Positions 1 through 23,201 of a stretch of DNA of 32,000 bases are shown here, piece after piece. Each line of letters opens with the position of its first letter. The first letter of the stretch is position 1. The stretch is from Candidatus Omnitrophota bacterium (lineage in GTDB: Bacteria; Omnitrophota; Gorgyraeia; Duberdicusellales; 4484-171), in contig JAIPHU010000003.1 of NCBI GenBank assembly GCA_021735045.1, positions 42,476 to 74,475 on the forward strand, given 5' to 3'. Under the pieces are notes generated by a model. The model was not told the origin of the DNA and ran no database searches. It saw nothing but the letters and a program-made list of their open reading frames with translations. The translations under genes were made by a program, and so were the position numbers.

Positions 1-339
1 CAGGTGCCCAAGCAAGCGTGAATCCATGTAATTAAGTGCTTTGCCATTGGAGAAATTGAAAATTACTCTAGCCCGTTCTTGGCTTTCTCCATAATGAAGC
101 CAGCCGGTCATTCTTAAATGAATTACTAAAAATTTTTCTTTTTTTAATTTAAGAATCAAAAGCTTGCCCCGCCTGATCACCTTTTCAACTTCTTGACCAA
201 TAATTTCTTTTTTAAATTGGGGCCAGGATGGTTCTTTTATCACTTCAACTCTGTTAATTTTTACTGCAGTAATTTCTTCCCCGAGAACATTTTCGGCTAA
301 TTCTCTTTTGATTGTCTCGACTTCTGGTAATTCTGGCAT
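1..339 (-). CDS. mutM: formamidopyrimidine-DNA glycosylase (Fpg/MutM), N-terminal 113 codons; continues beyond the window edge
   Basis: Absent from the ORF track because it is open at the edge. My reverse-strand translation from the ATG (337-339) reads MPELPEVETIKRELAENVLGEEITAVKINRVEV...FLVIHLRMTGWLHYGE...YMDSRLLGHL. The PELPEVE N-terminus and HLxMTG are Fpg hallmarks. AAGGA lies 9 nt upstream. Confidence 0.85.
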   Translation of the reverse strand, partial: MPELPEVETIKRELAENVLGEEITAVKINRVEVIKEPSWPQFKKEIIGQEVEKVIRRGKLLILKLKKEKFLVIHLRMTGWLHYGESQERARVIFNFSNGKALNYMDSRLLGHL

Positions 340-472
340 AGCTTTTTATCCTTTATTTTATTCTTTGTATCAAATTATTTTCTTTTTTATATAGATAACG
401 TCGGATCCAATATTATTATTGATTAAGTTTTGCTTCGCAAAAATTGGATGCGACTTCTGGTAATTCTGGCAT
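318..472 (-). repeat. 22-bp perfect direct repeat (318-339 = 451-472; first 22 nt of mutM) bracketing a 111-bp structured non-coding insert (340-450)
   Basis: CGACTTCTGGTAATTCTGGCAT occurs twice on the plus strand, 133 bp apart. The insert folds (minus strand) into the stem 454-443/411-400 with one C:C mismatch, plus the hairpin TTTTGC-GAA-GCAAAA (442-428). The upstream copy keeps an RBS (GGAGAG) and ATG but runs into a stop after 18 codons. Confidence 0.85.
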
Positions 473-6057: not shown

Positions 6058-7887
6058 TTACTCAACCGTGACCGACTTAGCCAGATTACGCGGCTGGTCT
6101 ATCTCTGCCCCTAAGTTTCTTGCTACCGAATAAGCAAGTAGTTGTAGGGCTACAGCCACAAGTAAAGGTGAGAGTTCTTGATAGTTTAATCTGGGAATAT
6201 AAATAGCTTGGTCTGCAAAAGGAAGAATTTCTTTGTCGGCTGGATTAATTATTGCCAGAATCTTTCCTTTTCGAGCTTTTATCTCCTGCAAATTAGAAGC
6301 CATCTTCTCATAAAGATGATCCTTAGGGGCAATGCAGACTACGGCTCGATACTCATCAATTAAGGCAATCGGGCCATGTTTCATCTCCCCGGCCGGATAA
6401 CCTTCTGCTGGGATATAAGATATCTCTTTTAATTTAAGAGCTCCTTCTAGGGCTGAAGGAAAATTTATCCCTCTTCCTAGAAAAAGAAAGCAACCCATCT
6501 TTGAAAATTTTTTGGCAATAGCCGCTATTTTTTTGTTTTGTTTTAAGATTTTTCTCTGATAAAAAGGTATCTTAGATAACTCTTTTAATATCTTTTTTCT
6601 TTCTTCTTTAGGTACAGTATTTTTTATGGTAGCTAGATGCAAGCAAAACAGATAGAGACAAATCAACTGAGTTGTATAAGCTTTAGTCGATGCAACGCCG
6701 ATTTCTGGACCAGCCGGTGTATAGATAAAGCTATCGCTTTCTCTAACCAAGCTTGAACCAATAACATTACAAATTGATAGTACTTTTGCTTTCTGCTGTT
6801 TTGCTTTTTTTAAAGCAGCTAAAGTATCTGCTGTTTCTCCTGATTGAGAGATAGCAATAAATAAATCTCCTTTGCTCACGTTAAAATCTCGATAACGAAA
6901 CTCAGAAGATGTGTCGACCTCAACTTTAATTTTGGTGTGTCGTTCTAGAAAATATTTAGCTACATAAGCAGCATGAAAGGCCGTACCGCAAGCGGTAATA
7001 AAAATATTTTTTATTCCTTTTAAGTATTTTTTGGTCAGTTTTAGCTGGTCAAAGTTAATTTTACTATCTTTTAGATATATATCTAAACTATCTTGCAAGA
7101 CTTTGGGTTGCTCATAAATTTCTTTGAGCATAAAGTGCTTAAAGCCTTTTTTCTTAGCCTCCTCAGTTTTTATTTCTATTTTTTCTTTTTTTACCCTTAG
7201 CTTTTTACCCTCAAAGCTATAAAGTTTTATTTTATTTTCTTCTAACACAGCTATTTGTTTTTCTTTTAAATAGATAACTTCTTTAGCTAAAGGAATTACA
7301 GCCGGTAAGTCTGAGGCTAAAAAAAACCCTTTATCCGCAACCCCAATTAAAAGCGGGCTTCTGTGACGAACCGCTACAATCTTATCTGGTTCAGATTCTG
7401 ACAAAACACCTAAAGCAAAAGCCCCTTTAAGTTTTTTAACTGCAGAAGCTACAGCTTTTTCAATAGAGTTTTTATAAAAACTTGCGATTAAGTTTGCCAC
7501 CACTTCTGAATCTGTATCGGTTTTAAACTTATAGCCTTTCTTCTTTAATTTCTTTTTTAGGTCAAGATGGTTTTCTATAATTCCATTATGAACAACATAT
7601 ATATTTTTCTTAAAACTTTTATGCGGATGAGCGTTCAACTTTACCGGCTTGCCGTGTGTAGCCCAGCGAGTATGGAGTAAGGCAGATGAGTATTTGTCAT
7701 TTAGTTTAGCTCCTAAATCTTTTTTAAGTTTTTGGATTTTCCCAGAATTTTTTTGACAGAGAAATTTCTCCAGATTATAAGAGACTACCCCACAAGAGTC
7801 ATACCCGCGATACTCTAACCTTTTCAGCCCCTCTATAAGACAAGAAAGCTTAACCTCTTTTCCTTTATATCCAAAAATACCGCACAT
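6058..7887 (-). CDS. glmS: glutamine--fructose-6-phosphate aminotransferase (isomerizing)
   Basis: 609-aa ORF with MCGIFGY N-terminus, two SIS domains and a C-terminal ...NLAKSVTVE. Confidence 0.95.
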   Translation of the reverse strand: MCGIFGYKGKEVKLSCLIEGLKRLEYRGYDSCGVVSYNLEKFLCQKNSGKIQKLKKDLGAKLNDKYSSALLHTRWATHGKPVKLNAHPHKSFKKNIYVVHNGIIENHLDLKKKLKKKGYKFKTDTDSEVVANLIASFYKNSIEKAVASAVKKLKGAFALGVLSESEPDKIVAVRHRSPLLIGVADKGFFLASDLPAVIPLAKEVIYLKEKQIAVLEENKIKLYSFEGKKLRVKKEKIEIKTEEAKKKGFKHFMLKEIYEQPKVLQDSLDIYLKDSKINFDQLKLTKKYLKGIKNIFITACGTAFHAAYVAKYFLERHTKIKVEVDTSSEFRYRDFNVSKGDLFIAISQSGETADTLAALKKAKQQKAKVLSICNVIGSSLVRESDSFIYTPAGPEIGVASTKAYTTQLICLYLFCLHLATIKNTVPKEERKKILKELSKIPFYQRKILKQNKKIAAIAKKFSKMGCFLFLGRGINFPSALEGALKLKEISYIPAEGYPAGEMKHGPIALIDEYRAVVCIAPKDHLYEKMASNLQEIKARKGKILAIINPADKEILPFADQAIYIPRLNYQELSPLLVAVALQLLAYSVARNLGAEIDQPRNLAKSVTVE

Positions 7888-8339
7888 TATATTTTTTGAT
7901 TATTAACTTTTTTTCTTAAAAAGAAATCTTTTATATTCTTGTTAGTAAAATACAAAATAACTATAGAAAAAAATAAAAATTGGGGGAAAGCAAAAATTAT
8001 AGAAGCTGGCTGAATTACAGCTGCTAAGATAAAAAGAATAACAACAAAAACAGAGAACCAAACCATAACTTTTCTAGCTAGCTCTTTGCGATAAAGGATA
8101 CCTATACCTGAAGATAAAAGAAACGCTGAAATAATTAAAGATATTTGATTAGCTATTTTTATTTGATCTTTTTTTATTTGGGAGCTAATTTCATTTTGCC
8201 CAATTCTTTTTAAAGAATCTCTATAGCTATTATGATCTAAAGTAAAATAGTTAACTAGAGAAAGCAGTCCAAAGATAACAATTAATACACCTAAGATCAA
8301 GACTCCTTTAGGATTTTTTAGTTGTTCTTTGTTTTGCAT
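7887..8339 (-). CDS. hypothetical multi-pass membrane protein
   Basis: 150-aa ORF with about four hydrophobic helices. No SD upstream (TACTCCTTCCC). Its stop overlaps the glmS start by 1 nt. Confidence 0.5.
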   Translation of the reverse strand: MQNKEQLKNPKGVLILGVLIVIFGLLSLVNYFTLDHNSYRDSLKRIGQNEISSQIKKDQIKIANQISLIISAFLLSSGIGILYRKELARKVMVWFSVFVVILFILAAVIQPASIIFAFPQFLFFSIVILYFTNKNIKDFFLRKKVNNQKI

Positions 8340-8384
8340 GGGAAGGAGTAAAGTTGTTTAAGAAAATAATAGCACATCCAAATT

Positions 8385-8433
8385 ATGCAAACTTCGGCGT
8401 AAGCCGAAGCTAGGCCGAAGGCCTTTTTTGCAT
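8385..8433 (-). terminator. double-hairpin element enclosed by a 7-bp stem; likely terminator after tRNA-Glu
   Basis: Minus strand: ATGCAAA-aaa-GGCC TTC GGCC-tag-CTTCGGC TTAC GCCGAAG-TTTGCAT, followed by AATTT. GC-rich hairpins in an AT-rich spacer. Confidence 0.4.
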
Positions 8434-8588
8434 CCAGCAACACTTTAATGCTAACTCTTGCTTTTACTATTACCTACTAGTTTTTAAAAAAACCTATAGT
8501 CTATCATAAGTAAAAGCTGAAGACGTTGGCTGAAGAATTATCTCCGTTTTTGATTTACAAATAACATTTTTAATACAAATAAAAACAA

Positions 8589-15005: not shown

Positions 15006-16340
15006 TTATAAGTTTTTAATTTCCTGTGCAAGGCTGTTAACTGTTGTTTTTAACTTCTCATCTTTAGTTAAAGCCTTTCTTATTTTTTTACAAGCATAAA
15101 GAATATTAGTGTGATGTTTACCCCCAAAAAAACCCCCAATTTCAGGGAGAGAACTCTCGGTCAACTCTCTTGTTAAATACATTGCAACCTGACGAGGCAA
15201 GACCAAAGTTTTACTTCTTTTAGCTTTTTTTAAATCTTCCTTGTCAACTCCATAAAAACAACTAACTTTATCCAAAATAATTTCCGGAGTAACTCTTGCG
15301 CTGATTTCGCGAACCATATCTTTTAAGATTCCTTTAGCTAGATCAACAGTGATTGTTTTATTTTCTATTAAGGAATAAGCTATAATTCTAACTAAAGCCC
15401 CCTCTAGTTCGCGGATATTTGAAGAGATATTTTCAGCAATAAAGCGGATAACTTGGGGGTCAACCTTTACTGCTTCGTTTTCTAGTTTTTTCTCTAAAAT
15501 TGCGACTCTGGTTTCATAATCCGGAGTTTGGATGTCAACAACCAAGCCCCAGTTAAAGCGGGAAACCAATCTTTCTTCTAAATCTGGAATTTCTTTCGGG
15601 GGGCGATCCGAAGAGACAACGATTTGTTTATGGTGGTCGTATAAGACATTAAACGTATGAAAAAACTCTTCCTGGGAAGCCTCTTTCCCCGAAAGAAATT
15701 GGATATCATCGATTAAAAGAATATCTATGTCTCGATATTTTTTTCTAAACTTATCCGTGTTTCTTTGCCGAATAGAAAGAATAAGGTCGTTAGCGAAGCT
15801 TTCTGAAGAAATATACTTAACTTTTGTTTGTGGGTTTAAAGAAAGCACATAATTAGAAATTGCTTGCATCAGGTGAGTTTTACCTAAACCAACTCCTCCA
15901 TATATAAAGATCGGGTTGTACGACTTTCCTGGGGCTCGGGCAACAGCTAAAGATGCAGCATGCGCCATTCGGTTTGAAGAGCCAACTACGAAATTATCAA
16001 AAGTAAAGCGGGGGTTGAGCCGCAAGGATGTTTGGGTTTTTTCTCCAAAGCTTTTATTAAAAGAACGAAAGATTTTTGTAGTTTTACTTTTAAGGATACC
16101 AGGATTTACCCGGAACTCTATATTTATTTTCTTTCCCTCAACTTCTTGGGAAATCTCTTCTATAGAAGAAAGATAGTTGCTTTCTACCCAGTTTTTAAAA
16201 AAACTGTCAGGAGCCTCTAAAACCAGATTTCCTTTAGAAGCTTCTTTGAGCTGTAAAGGAGATATCCAAGTATCAAAAGAAGTTTCTCCTAAACGTTCTT
16301 TAAGCTTTTTTTTACAATTTTCCCAAATATCTTGTTTCAT
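15006..16340 (-). CDS. dnaA: chromosomal replication initiator protein DnaA
   Basis: 444-aa ORF with Walker A GGVGLGKTHL, LLIDDIQFLSGKE and a C-terminal DNA-binding domain (...VAMYLTRELT...IGGFFGGKHHTNILYA). Confidence 0.95.
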   Translation of the reverse strand: MKQDIWENCKKKLKERLGETSFDTWISPLQLKEASKGNLVLEAPDSFFKNWVESNYLSSIEEISQEVEGKKINIEFRVNPGILKSKTTKIFRSFNKSFGEKTQTSLRLNPRFTFDNFVVGSSNRMAHAASLAVARAPGKSYNPIFIYGGVGLGKTHLMQAISNYVLSLNPQTKVKYISSESFANDLILSIRQRNTDKFRKKYRDIDILLIDDIQFLSGKEASQEEFFHTFNVLYDHHKQIVVSSDRPPKEIPDLEERLVSRFNWGLVVDIQTPDYETRVAILEKKLENEAVKVDPQVIRFIAENISSNIRELEGALVRIIAYSLIENKTITVDLAKGILKDMVREISARVTPEIILDKVSCFYGVDKEDLKKAKRSKTLVLPRQVAMYLTRELTESSLPEIGGFFGGKHHTNILYACKKIRKALTKDEKLKTTVNSLAQEIKNL

Positions 16341-16364
16341 TGACGATTTAACAAAGTTAACAAC

Positions 16365-16373
16365 TTATTCACA
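16365..16373 (+). promoter_or_regulatory. single DnaA-box-like 9-mer TTATTCACA (one mismatch to TTATCCACA) in the dnaA leader
   Basis: Read directly. It is the only close match I found in the dnaA-rpmH spacer. Confidence 0.35.
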
Positions 16374-16435
16374 TTTTTAAGGAATGATTATTTCCTGCGC
16401 GGTACCAGAAGTAACCTATTGATTTTGAATAACCA

Positions 16436-16463
16436 ATTATACCTCAATAAAATATCTTTGCAA
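16436..16463 (-). promoter_or_regulatory. sigma70-like promoter facing dnaA
   Basis: Minus strand: TTGCAA (16463-16458), 16 nt, TATAAT (16441-16436). Confidence 0.45.
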
Positions 16464-16474
16464 CTTTTTTGTAG

Positions 16475-16502
16475 TTGACACCTAATTATTTTATGCTACA
16501 AT
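16475..16502 (+). promoter_or_regulatory. sigma70-like promoter facing rpmH
   Basis: TTGACA (16475-16480), 16 nt, TACAAT (16497-16502). Divergent from the dnaA promoter. Confidence 0.5.
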
Positions 16503-16540
16503 TTCAACTTACCTGATAGTATATTGAATTTAAAAAAGGC

Positions 16541-16740
16541 GATGAGCTATATAAGTATAGTTAATTTTTGATAAAAAGATAACTAAAAGGTGCAAAATGT
16601 ATGCGTTTTTTGCCGCAGGCAAACATTCTCTAGCTATTGCCTAAGAGAATATAACGCATCCATGTAATGTATTAGACTCACAAACAGTGATGAGCTATAT
16701 AAGTATAGTTAATTTTTGATAAAAAGATAACTAAAAGGTG
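16541..16740 (+). repeat. 52-bp perfect direct repeat (16541-16592 = 16689-16740; rpmH leader including SD) bracketing a 96-bp structured insert (16593-16688)
   Basis: GATGAGCTATATAAGTATAGTTAATTTTTGATAAAAAGATAACTAAAAGGTG occurs twice, 148 bp apart. The insert folds into the stem 16597-16607/16653-16663 with one T:C mismatch, hairpin TTTGCC-GCA-GGCAAA (16609-16623) and hairpin 16625-16650. Confidence 0.85.
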
Positions 16741-16747
16741 AAAAAAC

Positions 16748-16885
16748 ATGAAAAAAAATCTAAAAACACCTAGTAATTTAAAAGGGAAAAGAAAACACGG
16801 TTTTCGTAAGAGGATGAGCTCGAAAAACGGGAAAAAAATAGTAAATCAACGGCGAAGAAAAGGGCGTAAAAAAATATCTGTATGA
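16748..16885 (+). CDS. rpmH: 50S ribosomal protein L34
   Basis: Below the ORF-track size cutoff. My translation is [45 protein letters not shown] (45 aa). The HGFRKRM..GR motif is L34-specific. Overlaps yidD in ATGA. Confidence 0.9.
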
Positions 16886-17088
16886 GAAGGGCTGCTATCT
16901 TTTTAATCCAGATATATCAAAAACTTCCCCAATTCTTGCCTACTTCTTGCATATATATCCCAACTTGTTCTGAATATGCTAAGCAAGCTTTTGAGAAGCA
17001 TTTCTTTTTAAAGGCTTTGGGGTTGACTGTATTTCGCATCTTACGTTGTAATCCTTTTTCACGAGGTGGGTTTGACCCTGTGAGGTAA
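16882..17088 (+). CDS. yidD: membrane protein insertion efficiency factor YidD
   Basis: 68-aa ORF with the C.Y.PTCSEYA...RCNPF..GG.DPV pattern. Confidence 0.88.
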
Positions 17089-18584: not shown

Positions 18585-18602
18585 CGTTTTCACGTGAAAA
18601 CG
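18585..18602. promoter_or_regulatory. parS-like site 1 (perfect 18-bp palindrome CGTTTTCACGTGAAAACG)
   Basis: The central 12 nt TTTCACGTGAAA are identical to the canonical parS TGTTTCACGTGAAACA. Lies upstream of parAB. Confidence 0.65.
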
Positions 18603-18714: not shown

Positions 18715-18730
18715 CGTTTTCACGTGAAAA
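18715..18730. promoter_or_regulatory. parS-like site 2 (CGTTTTCACGTGAAAA)
   Basis: Same core, TTTCACGTGAAA. Confidence 0.6.
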
Positions 18731-18796: not shown

Positions 18797-18813
18797 ATAT
18801 ACACGTGAAAACG
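18797..18813. promoter_or_regulatory. parS-like half-conserved site 3 (ATATACACGTGAAAACG)
   Basis: The right half is identical to site 1 and the left half is degenerate. It is part of a 37-bp repeat (18591-18627 vs 18802-18838). Confidence 0.45.
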
Positions 18814-18956
18814 CTAGAACCCCTTGATTTTATTAACAATTCTCATTTTGGTTGTTATTTTTTTTGAGTAATTAAATAAAAATGGTTGCAATTCTCATCA
18901 AATAGTATTAAAATAAAGAAAATTGAAATATTTATATATTATTGATAACAAAAGAT

Positions 18957-22850: not shown

Positions 22851-22871
22851 TTGTTGGTTCATAGTTCTTTC

Positions 22872-22901
22872 TGCATAGCGCAAAGCGCTTAGCGCTATGC
22901 A
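22872..22901 (+). terminator. 30-nt near-perfect palindrome TGCATAGCGC-A-AAGCGCTT-A-GCGCTATGCA after tRNA-Cys
   Basis: Read directly. It shares its 5' arm TGCATAGCGC with the hairpin at 23167-23189. Confidence 0.4.
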
Positions 22902-22930: not shown

Positions 22931-23087
22931 AAACTTATTGCCGGGGTGTTGGCAAGAACTTCTTGCCGAAGGCAAGCTAGTTTGCTTATACGTGTACAGT
23001 TCTTCCCAAAGATTTTGGAGATAAAACAAAACTATTGCTAATTTGAAAACTAATAAATTAAGGATAAACTTATTGCCGGGGTGTTGG
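22931..23087 (+). repeat. 22-bp perfect direct repeat (22931-22952 = 23066-23087; 9 nt of leader plus first 13 nt of tRNA-Leu) bracketing a 113-bp structured insert (22953-23065)
   Basis: AAACTTATTGCCGGGGTGTTGG occurs twice, 135 bp apart. The insert folds into the stem 22949-22960/22998-23009 with one C:C mismatch and the hairpin CTTGCC-GAA-GGCAAG (22962-22976). Confidence 0.85.
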
Positions 23088-23160
23088 AATTGGCAGACAA
23101 CTCGGACTTAAAATCCGGTGTTCCGAAAGGGACGTGCGGGTTCAAGTCCCGCCCCCGGCA
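23075..23160 (+). tRNA. tRNA-Leu (anticodon UAA), class II with long variable arm
   Basis: Acceptor GCCGGGG/CCCCGGC, anticodon loop CTTAAAA, variable arm GTTCCGAAAGGGAC, T arm GCGGG-TTCAAGT-CCCGC, discriminator A. Confidence 0.9.
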
Positions 23161-23166
23161 TATTTT

Positions 23167-23189
23167 TGCATAGCGCTAGGCGCTAAGCA
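23167..23189 (+). terminator. hairpin TGCATAGCGC-tag-GCGCTAAGCA after tRNA-Leu, with a T-run 7 nt downstream
   Basis: Read directly. Confidence 0.4.
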
Positions 23190-23201
23190 CTGAGTGTTTT
23201 T

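Follow-up and report, generated by a model that had tools for sequence, protein, structure and literature searches.

MITEs (miniature transposable elements that carry inverted repeats) and the Correia/NEMIS, ERIC/RU, BOX and RUP repeats of bacteria are short (~60-150 nt), non-coding sequences, which occur in multiple copies per genome, form stable stem-loops beside genes in transcripts and vary in presence and absence between strains. The same properties were found for a structured insert in a 32,000-nt stretch of contig JAIPHU010000003.1 (called the window in the following), which originates from an Omnitrophota metagenome-assembled genome. The insert is located between two copies of the leader of rpmH, the gene of ribosomal protein L34, and its core is predicted to fold into a three-way junction, here termed X. 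The 32 kb of the window comprise 3 (perhaps 4) copies of X, and empty rpmH and yidD sites are known in relatives, of which short loci were included in the analysis. We read the insert as a member of a family of small duplicative elements or leader cassettes at gene 5' ends, with a probability of about 45%, and on our best reading the X family of three-way-junction elements is previously undescribed.

While MITEs comprise conserved terminal inverted repeats and target duplications of a fixed length of 2-10 bp, the duplications flanking X vary from 6 to 88 nt (6, 22, 22 and 52-88 nt). No terminal inverted repeats are shared between the three window copies, the arms of their closing stem P1 being ATGCGTT/AACGCAT, AAGAACT/AGTTCTT and ATCCAAT/ATTGGAT, and the ends of the element (start of X and end of its tail) are not inverted repeats of each other. 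Compared to MITE-type elements in general, the stem arms of X differ fully between copies yet stay paired, the outer pairs make use of target nucleotides, and all copies are located at gene 5' ends in sense orientation.

Among bacterial insertion elements, we could document long target duplications of variable length for IS1634/IS1549 only, for which a range of 8-514 bp is given and the mechanism is left unexplained. X shows the same long, variable direct repeats at the insertion site. However, members of the IS1634 family are 1.5-2 kb long and carry a DDE transposase and terminal inverted repeats, neither of which was seen for X (20 window genes scanned). To our knowledge, no derivative MITE of the IS1634 family is known.

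IS200/IS605 elements, PATEs and REP/REPIN sequences with RAYT move as folded single-stranded DNA, which is recognised by subterminal hairpins. For IS200/IS605, the foot of the hairpin carries a guide to which a tetranucleotide of the flanking target pairs, and the orientation is tied to the direction of replication. In 10 of 10 copies of X, the 3' foot of P1 is paired to the final 3-4 nucleotides of the target. In IS200/IS605, however, hairpins and guides are conserved within the family and the target is not duplicated, whereas the guide-like nucleotides of X differ per copy in a geometry unlike IS608, and the gene start is duplicated, with perfect 22-nt and 52-nt duplications flanking X copies. 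The short, GC-rich palindrome with a 5' GTAG and the mostly extragenic location at gene 3' ends, which characterise REP/REPIN sequences, were not found either; X contains no GTAG, forms a three-way junction and lies at gene 5' ends.

In its anatomy, X comes close to short interspersed elements (SINEs), with a structured 5' head, an A-rich tail, a variable target duplication, a co-mobilised 3' flank, microhomology at the junctions and no coding sequence. This likeness is anatomical only, as SINEs depend on a eukaryotic mechanism with the endonuclease and reverse transcriptase of long interspersed elements, and a reverse transcriptase was not seen among the 20 window genes. We know of no bacterial counterpart of SINE retroposition. 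With ribosomal-protein leaders, X has in common a conserved, covarying structure in the 5' untranslated region (UTR) of a ribosomal protein gene. Such leaders would be expected to be operon-specific and to be kept together with their operon, whereas X has no match in Rfam, is dispensable, as the close relatives L087/L088 and L100/L101 show, is flanked by duplications and has copies at fpg, tRNA-Leu and yidD. Autoregulatory leaders are further expected to mimic the rRNA site of the protein that they bind; the window itself contains no rRNA. Putative mobile promoters are near-identical upstream regions before unrelated genes in one genome (PMC3575422). The X copy at fpg resembles these in carrying an rpmH-like leader, but the X segment contains no detectable promoter and comes with a folded element and a target duplication.

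Leader duplication and X at rpmH

The dnaA-rpmH spacer of the window comprises 407 nt (16341-16747). As the initial annotation had described, a perfect 52-mer, GATGAGCTATATAAGTATAGTTAATTTTTGATAAAAAGATAACTAAAAGGTG, is present in this spacer at 16541-16592 and again at 16689-16740. It occurs exactly two times, the copies differ at 0 positions, and 0 matches are expected in shuffled sequences. The repeat can be extended imperfectly to 81 nt (16517-16597 and 16665-16745, 86% identity); for the 30 nt left of the perfect block, a shuffle test gave no support for homology (z = 0.0). For the 96-nt insert between the copies (16593-16688) a fold of -21.7 kcal/mol was calculated (z = -2.3), and refolding agreed with the closing stem with mismatch and the two internal hairpins (16609-16623 and 16625-16650) proposed before. 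The stem P1 consists of three outer pairs (16597-16599/16661-16663), a U.C mismatch (16600/16660) and an inner stem (16601-16607/16653-16659), the hairpin P2 of the arms 16609-16614/16618-16623 with a GCA loop, and P3 of the arms 16625-16631/16644-16650. The outer three pairs of P1 are formed by the AUG directly after the upstream leader copy U1 (Table 1). The previously noted 15-codon open reading frame (ORF) from the ATG at 16597 is present as well. Its frame, its length (9-23 codons) and its sequence past Met-Tyr are unconserved in relatives, and the assumption of a conserved leader peptide was rejected on account of the varying frame and length. A hammerhead-like reading of GAUGAG in the repeat was also rejected by eye, as C3/U4 and GAAA are lacking.

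An assembly artefact had been named as a possible source of the duplication. In an independent Logan assembly (SRR12088346), contig L001 has its start precisely at the left border of the 52-mer and extends into rpmH. A start at the repeat edge is the expected break of a de Bruijn graph when a repeat exceeds the k-mer in length, and the duplication is therefore present in the reads and not made by the assembler. Together with the layout leader-X-leader in at least 6 other distinct assemblies (NCBI, JGI), each with its own sequence, this demonstrates that the duplication is genuine.

A sigma-70 scan detected a promoter in neither repeat copy. The initial annotation assumed that the insert may recreate a promoter, based on two -35-like hexamers. 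TTGAAT was confirmed at 16524, while TTAGAC is located at 16672, one base from the claimed 16671, and the claimed -10 hexamer varies among relatives (TATATA, TATGTA, TCTGTA or TTTGTG). With no match in the repeats and a single 11/12 promoter upstream of them (16475-16502), which is conserved in every relative, this assumption found no support. The transcription start of rpmH is predicted at ~16510, so that the sequence up to 16747 represents the predicted 5' UTR. Since the only promoter lies upstream and none lies in the repeats, leader copy 1, X and leader copy 2 together are predicted to form one long rpmH 5' UTR of ~240 nt.

Table 1. Positions of the features discussed in the window.
Feature	Position	Strand	Remarks
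dnaA promoter-like site TTGCAA-16-TATAAT	16436..16463	-	inside block AATTATACCTCAATAAAATATCTTTGCAAC, conserved in all relatives
rpmH promoter TTGACA-16-TGcTACAAT	16475..16502	+	sigma-70 scan, 11/12 and extended -10; kept in all relatives
U1, upstream rpmH leader copy	16517..16596	+	holds perfect 52-mer 16541-16592; 5' part 16517-16540 diverged
X, 67-nt three-way junction	16597..16663	+	predicted fold of the insert core
15-codon upstream ORF MYAFFAAGKHSLAIA	16597..16644	+	opens at the duplicated start position
U2, leader copy preceding rpmH itself	16665..16747	+	perfect 52-mer 16689-16740; AAAGG Shine-Dalgarno-like motif
rpmH (ribosomal protein L34, 45 aa)	16748..16885	+	stop codon overlaps yidD start
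First 22-nt repeat copy at tRNA-Leu, AAACTTATTGCCGGGGTGTTGG	22931..22952	+	8 nt of upstream sequence and first 14 nt of tRNA-Leu
X-family copy at tRNA-Leu	22950..23012	+	P2 CUUGCC-GAA-GGCAAG; outer P1 uses TTGG (repeat end); R1 20.9 bits
A-rich tail at tRNA-Leu	23013..23065	+	from X copy to second repeat
Second 22-nt repeat copy at tRNA-Leu	23066..23087	+	runs into intact tRNA-Leu(taa) 23074-23161
First 22-nt repeat copy at fpg, ATGCCAGAATTACCAGAAGTCG	451..472	-	first 22 nt of fpg; native GGAGAG upstream
X-family copy at fpg	397..453 (model match 453-396)	-	P2 UUUUG-CGAAG-CAAAA; R1 17.4 bits
Tail of fpg copy	340..396	-	A-rich; AAAGGA site 9 nt before ATG; resembles rpmH leader 52-mer
True 5' part of fpg/mutM	1..339	-	second repeat copy 318-339; Pfam Fapy_DNA_glyco from residue 1
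Possible fourth copy, three-way junction	8383..8440	ambiguous	16-17 bits, E about 0.04

The dnaA-rpmH spacers or rpmH upstream regions of relatives were gathered via DnaA and L34 homologues and sorted into four groups by their rpmH-yidD-yidC DNA. Group 1 contains the window alone, clade 2 comprises L084, L085 and L087 (76-78% identical to the window) and clade 3 L093-L103 (72%), while two further genomes, L105 (DnaA 90%) and L104 (DnaA 84%), form the fourth group. Among GTDB representative genomes the best DnaA identity was merely 50-53%, and X was not matched in 657 kb of their loci. Viral contigs, phage records and plasmid records gave no match.

Most relatives bearing X also have two leader copies, and this layout is common to three clades and L104. 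The leader pair comprises 77 nt with one mismatch in L097, and perfect pairs of 58 nt and 84 nt were found in L094 and L104. The leader of L104 is unrelated to that of the window (~55% identity, which equals the background of these alignments), and the initial idea of a single insertion event in this genome is contradicted by the occurrence of the layout in three clades and in L104. The two leader copies of one genome are 83-100% identical, compared to 52-96% between genomes, and the perfect pair of L094 is merely 63-75% identical to any other genome's leader. Relatives thus carry a leader pair in the orthologous spacer, but not the same 52-mer, whose pair in distant relatives had been named as a sign of a functional iteron-like repeat. 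Since each genome pairs its own leader, the pairs point to concerted evolution (gene conversion) or repeated in-situ duplication, and on these comparisons a conserved iteron is excluded.

Alleles with a single leader and no X exist in L087/L088 and L100/L101, so that the insertion-like behaviour assumed at first was confirmed and X with its leader copy can be described as an insertion/deletion unit. In L084 and L085 the upstream leader copy is only partial. In L105, X is located directly at the predicted 5' end of the mRNA without an upstream leader copy, and the ATG therefore belongs to X.

The distribution of X and of the leaders does not follow the flanking genes. Type A of X is 100% identical in L085 (clade 2) and L093/L097 (clade 3), with rpmH-yidC DNA that is ~72% identical. 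L094 and L097 are 99.4% identical downstream, yet differ in the type of X and in both leader copies. In X (91% identity) and in the leader (84-86%), the window is closest to clade 3 and not to clade 2, compared to an identity of 72% to clade 3 in the coding flank. Because of this conflict, the cassette must have been exchanged or re-created independently of its surroundings. Small tandem duplications were also found in the leaders of L093 and L100. Possible older remnants of X before the first leader copy were considered for L093, where a small tandem duplication at the start of the leader seems the better reading, and for L104.

A homologous X is located at the same position in every clade sampled, and its sequence varies with the pairing being kept. 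P1 was found as GCGUU/AACGC, GCGCU/AGCGC, ACGCU/AGCGU and GUGAUA/UAUCAC, P2 as UUUGCC/GGCAAA (window) and UCCGGC/GCCGGA (type A), and P3 as AUUCUCU/AGAGAAU and AUUUUC/GAAAAU. With 5 distinct variants, RNAalifold determined 23 pairs, 8 of them with compensatory changes and 0 broken. With 7 variants, 97.4% of the cells were paired and 10 of the 23 pairs had changed on both sides; slid alignments reached 29-55% paired, and 0 of 500 shuffles reached the observed values. Although the sample is small and its sequences are related, the signal is present in all three helices. As judged from this covariation, X is shown to be a structure under selection. In the reliable helices 3 G.U pairs stand against 0 A.C, which weakly indicates that the sense strand folds.

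A search of the whole window against Rfam at the gathering threshold returned 7 tRNAs only, and at E values up to 10 the region 16300-16900 gave one chance match to a snoRNA and nothing relevant. ARAGORN found neither a tRNA nor a tmRNA in the X region. In the closest relative L083 (DnaA 96%; positions ~60-250), X is enlarged to ~135 nt, with the 3' half AAGAGAATCTATCACATCTATG retained and two GC-rich hairpins, ATTCGCCGG-TTTA-TCCGGCGAAT and ATACGCCGG-TCGA-GCCGGCGTAT, at the position of P2. The upstream leader copy is absent and the fold energy has a z of -4.7. The enlarged X may represent a nested insertion.

X copies at other gene starts

A covariance model (R1) was built from the rpmH copies only, the fpg and tRNA-Leu copies being left out. 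R1 detected a second X in L084, located between the rpmH stop and the yidD start (43.6 bits, E 2.5e-8) and followed by a ~75-nt leader. This yidD site is empty in L085, where the genes join by an overlapping ATGA, filled in L084 and a deletion derivative in L087. Altogether, the rpmH-yidD junction is variable: the overlap is present in the window and L085, a 150-nt insertion of X and leader in L084 (1860-1996), a 51-nt remnant in L087 (2052-2104) and an unrelated spacer of ~130 nt in L104.

In the window, the best R1 matches after X and its antisense image were those at tRNA-Leu and fpg (Table 1). Their scores are modest when taken alone, and the case rests on the adjacency to direct repeats together with the shared stem design. 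Both loci carry a perfect 22-nt repeat, and each X match directly follows the first repeat member. At fpg, the first repeat copy starts an 18-codon ORF entering X, and P1 consists of AUCCAAU/AUUGGAU, a C.C mismatch and the outer pairs GUCG/CGAC, which are made with the repeat end. Besides the parS-like sites described below, the window comprises three pairs of exact direct repeats of at least 16 nt with a spacing of 60-300 nt, all of which abut X copies. As a control, ~6 isolated pairs of this kind were counted in 687 kb of unrelated dnaA loci. The start-to-start spacings of the three pairs are alike (133, 135 and 148 nt).

The X family was thereby found at four different gene starts, namely rpmH, yidD (in L084), fpg and tRNA-Leu. 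Ten sequences share one design of P1, with an inner stem of 7 pairs, a mismatch that always has a C on its 3' side, and 3-4 outer pairs, for which the end of the upstream target copy (ATG, TATG, TTGG or GTCG) provides the 5' strand. In an alignment of 10 copies (A5), the outer pairs covaried with the target (ATG/CAT, TGG/CCA and TCG/CGA), 94.3% of the cells were paired (100% in P1), and 16 of the 23 pairs showed double changes. The junction is G^A and the orientation sense to the following gene in every copy. P2 is a hairpin of the type GCC-GNA-GGC; GCCGNAGGC was found 4 times compared to 0.27 expected, and TTGCCGNAGGCAA 2 times compared to 0.19.

At fpg and tRNA-Leu, X is followed by A-rich tails of 53-57 nt. 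Shuffle tests (z = -1.2, 0.0 and 0.0) led to the rejection of these tails as diverged native upstream regions, as would result from simple tandem duplications. The fpg tail resembles the rpmH leader with a z of 3.7 (6 of 2000 shuffles), and the rpmH leader ranked first among 33 gene-upstream 59-mers for this tail, with a score of 42 compared to 31 for the next. Promoters inside repeats or tails were rejected as well: none was found at rpmH, and one 9/12 match at the tail/repeat junction of tRNA-Leu and weak ones at fpg have no common pattern.

The segment 8383-8440 could be a fourth family member. It folds as AUGCAAA / CUUCGGC-GUAA-GCCGAAG / AGGCC-GAA-GGCCU / UUUGCAU, is GC-rich and lies between tRNA-Glu and the ORF 7887-8339. 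The X models match it on the plus strand, in antisense to either neighbour. Read from the minus strand, its first stem arm, ATGCAAA(A), is a repetition of the opening 8 nt of the ORF that comes next. A broader model (R2), applied with filters off, gave no more convincing copies in the window or in 17 loci.

Duplicative element, host module or repair product

The anatomy of the element, a three-way junction of 55-70 nt that is often followed by an A-rich, leader-like tail, can be brought into the following scheme. X would spread by copy-and-paste through a folded single strand (DNA or RNA) and enter the 5' ends of genes in sense orientation, at G^A positions. Junctions would form at short microhomologies (ATG, AAAC, GTCG, TTGG), X would at times co-carry the leader located downstream at its source, and a second break or template jump at a variable distance upstream would produce the duplication. 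The gene would stay intact, with its own 5' end on both sides of X. At rpmH, where the target is a leader ending in the start codon, this would lead to the order leader copy 1 - AUG - X - leader copy 2 - AUG - rpmH, and this locus would be the long-standing residence and likely source of the family. Once X is in place, the two leader copies would be homogenised by gene conversion, which would explain the perfect 52 nt of the window beside diverged flanks, and recombination between the copies would remove X and yield the single-leader alleles. On the level of RNA, the whole unit would be transcribed from the promoter at 16475-16502. The fold of X would bury the duplicated AUG in P1; the upstream copy would yield at most a short unconserved ORF, and rpmH would be translated from the downstream copy.

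The variable duplication length, the junction microhomologies, the A-rich tail and the co-mobilised 3' flank fit a target-primed or template-switching synthesis, as a matter of anatomy and not of proof. X might even be the head of a new kind of duplicative element, in which a folded strand, possibly the 5' end of the rpmH transcript, which in L105 is predicted to start with X, is copied into G^A sites at gene starts by microhomology-primed synthesis, carries the downstream leader and duplicates the 5' end of the target, whereby essential genes would outlive the insertion. Such a bacterial analogue of SINE-type or templated-insertion retroposition is considered doubtful.

Several observations weigh against a duplicative element. 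The 20 neighbouring genes of the window are housekeeping genes and include no transposase or reverse transcriptase, and neither terminal inverted repeats nor conserved termini of the transposase type were seen. The three window copies share only P2 and the overall design, and the similarity of the tRNA-Leu tail to the rpmH leader is not significant (z = 0.4). Empty alleles are known at the rpmH and yidD sites, while the polarity of the event at fpg and tRNA-Leu, as to which sequence entered the other, is presumed. The incongruent distribution could be explained by ordinary homologous recombination of leader alleles without mobility specific to an element, and a host function would account for the persistence of X at rpmH in all sampled clades no less well than a selfish element would. 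The copy count, furthermore, covers 32 kb of this genome.

A host function would mean that X is a cis-acting RNA module of the rpmH 5' UTR, which could protect the transcript from 5'-end-dependent decay or be bound by L34 or another factor. In that case, the extra leader copy upstream would act as a decoy or as a site of standby initiation whose identity is maintained by selection or gene conversion, and the other copies would reflect re-use of the leader. X is part of the leader transcribed from a strong conserved promoter, is found with compensatory changes in all sampled clades down to 84% DnaA identity, sequesters the duplicated AUG in P1 and shows the excess of G.U over A.C (3 vs 0) that favours folding of the sense strand; the fpg copy, moreover, brings an rpmH-like Shine-Dalgarno region to fpg. 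In L105, X is at the very 5' end of the predicted mRNA, the classic position of a transcript-stabilising stem-loop. These points have to be set against close relatives that do without X (L087/L088, L100/L101), a copy in front of a tRNA, for which a translation leader would be of no use, and the unconserved upstream ORF. The pair as such is not required either, as L105 lacks the upstream copy and L084 and L085 have only part of it, and in L104 the leader sequence is wholly changed while the duplication persists. The 22-nt duplications of coding and tRNA sequence are left unexplained, and no Rfam match ties X to known ribosomal-protein leaders. We therefore regard a host module as possible but somewhat unlikely. 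It does not exclude the duplicative element, since a domesticated element would show both sets of properties.

Another explanation would be that no dedicated element exists and the structures are by-products of replication or repair, for example by template switching or microhomology-mediated break-induced replication at hairpin-forming DNA. A nearby structured segment would be copied and re-annealed upstream, giving a templated insertion and a duplication, followed by gene conversion and exchange of alleles between strains. This would account for the short microhomologies at the junctions (ATG, AAAC, GTCG, TTGG), the variable duplication length of 6-88 nt, the small tandem duplications in the leaders of L093 and L100, the mosaic of recombination in the leader region and the 20 window genes in which no transposase was found. 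The shared P2 hairpin, with the excess of GCCGNAGGC (4 vs 0.27) and TTGCCGNAGGCAA (2 vs 0.19), would be unexpected, however, and the same design of P1 with C mismatch and 7-pair inner stem at four loci, the uniform sense orientation and the compensatory evolution in all three helices across species would have no explanation, so that by-products of this kind appear quite improbable. Still far less probable, and in essence excluded, is the interpretation of the paired 52-mers as origin elements (iterons or unwinding elements) with an insert tolerated within oriC, although the position between the divergent dnaA and rpmH, the three parS-like sites with parAB nearby and the GC skew speak in its favour. 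The cumulative GC skew has its turning point (minimum) at ~16 kb, and the replication origin is therefore located nearby; the tolerated insertion in an origin that the initial annotation described is nevertheless not supported. Clustered DnaA boxes or conserved repeats, as expected of oriC elements, were not found: the spacer contains a single DnaA box with one mismatch at 16365 and the repeats none, several relatives are single-copy, and the repeat sequence differs between clades. Moreover, the repeats are part of the transcribed rpmH leader, insertions of the size of an insertion sequence are present between the two divergent promoters in relatives, and similar duplications flank X far from the origin (fpg, tRNA-Leu).

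Neighbouring features and significance

On the minus strand, the genes are arranged in the order gyrB, a 91-aa ORF, dnaN and dnaA, and on the plus strand in the order rpmH, yidD, yidC, parA and parB. The gene yidD (16882-17088) directly follows rpmH, the two being joined by an overlapping ATGA, and is itself followed by yidC. Between rpmH and yidD, the usual place of the RNase P protein gene rnpA, this gene is absent in the window, and the same holds true for all relatives examined. Three copies of the palindrome CGTTTTCACGTGAAAACG lie between yidC and parA (18585-18600, 18715-18730 and 18802-18815) and resemble parS partition sites; parS-like sites were also found in the relatives L085 and L087. 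A palindromic block TTTYTGCATAGCGC...GCGCT follows tRNA-Cys and tRNA-Leu (22868-22896 and 23163-23191). Its two copies are 83% identical and may represent a terminator or processing hairpin common to both genes, or a further small repeat.

Just past the predicted transcription start of rpmH (equivalent to 16510-16530 of the window), clade 3 shows the hairpin CUAAUA-AUG-UAUUAG, the counterpart of which in L087, CUAAUG-AUA-CAUUAG, represents a compensatory change. This suggests a small 5'-terminal leader hairpin separate from X. An insertion sequence is located between the divergent dnaA and rpmH promoters in L090/L091 (~90-400) and L100/L101 (1-150), at the equivalent of ~16465-16470 in the window, with the inverted ends GGTGGATTGTAACTCTTATTGCGAAAA. 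The C-terminus of its transposase may be IS30-like. Divergence at the same point was also seen in L086 and L103, and TCTTTGCAAC forms the end of several contigs, Logan L002 among them. This point looks like an insertion hot spot, which would explain the assembly breaks.

The repeat pairs have consequences for the handling of such genomes. They break short-read assemblies at the dnaA-rpmH junction, where the contigs of several relatives end, and annotation may be misled by the false upstream start codons and truncated gene copies that result from them. Should X turn out to be a host module, a poorly studied phylum would provide a new structured element in the 5' UTR of a ribosomal protein gene, with its leader re-used before other genes. 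If X is a mobile element, it would stand beside IS1634/IS1549 as a second example, independent of them, of long variable target duplications, and would be a selfish sequence that, by duplicating the start of the gene, enters essential genes such as rpmH and a tRNA without the death of its host.

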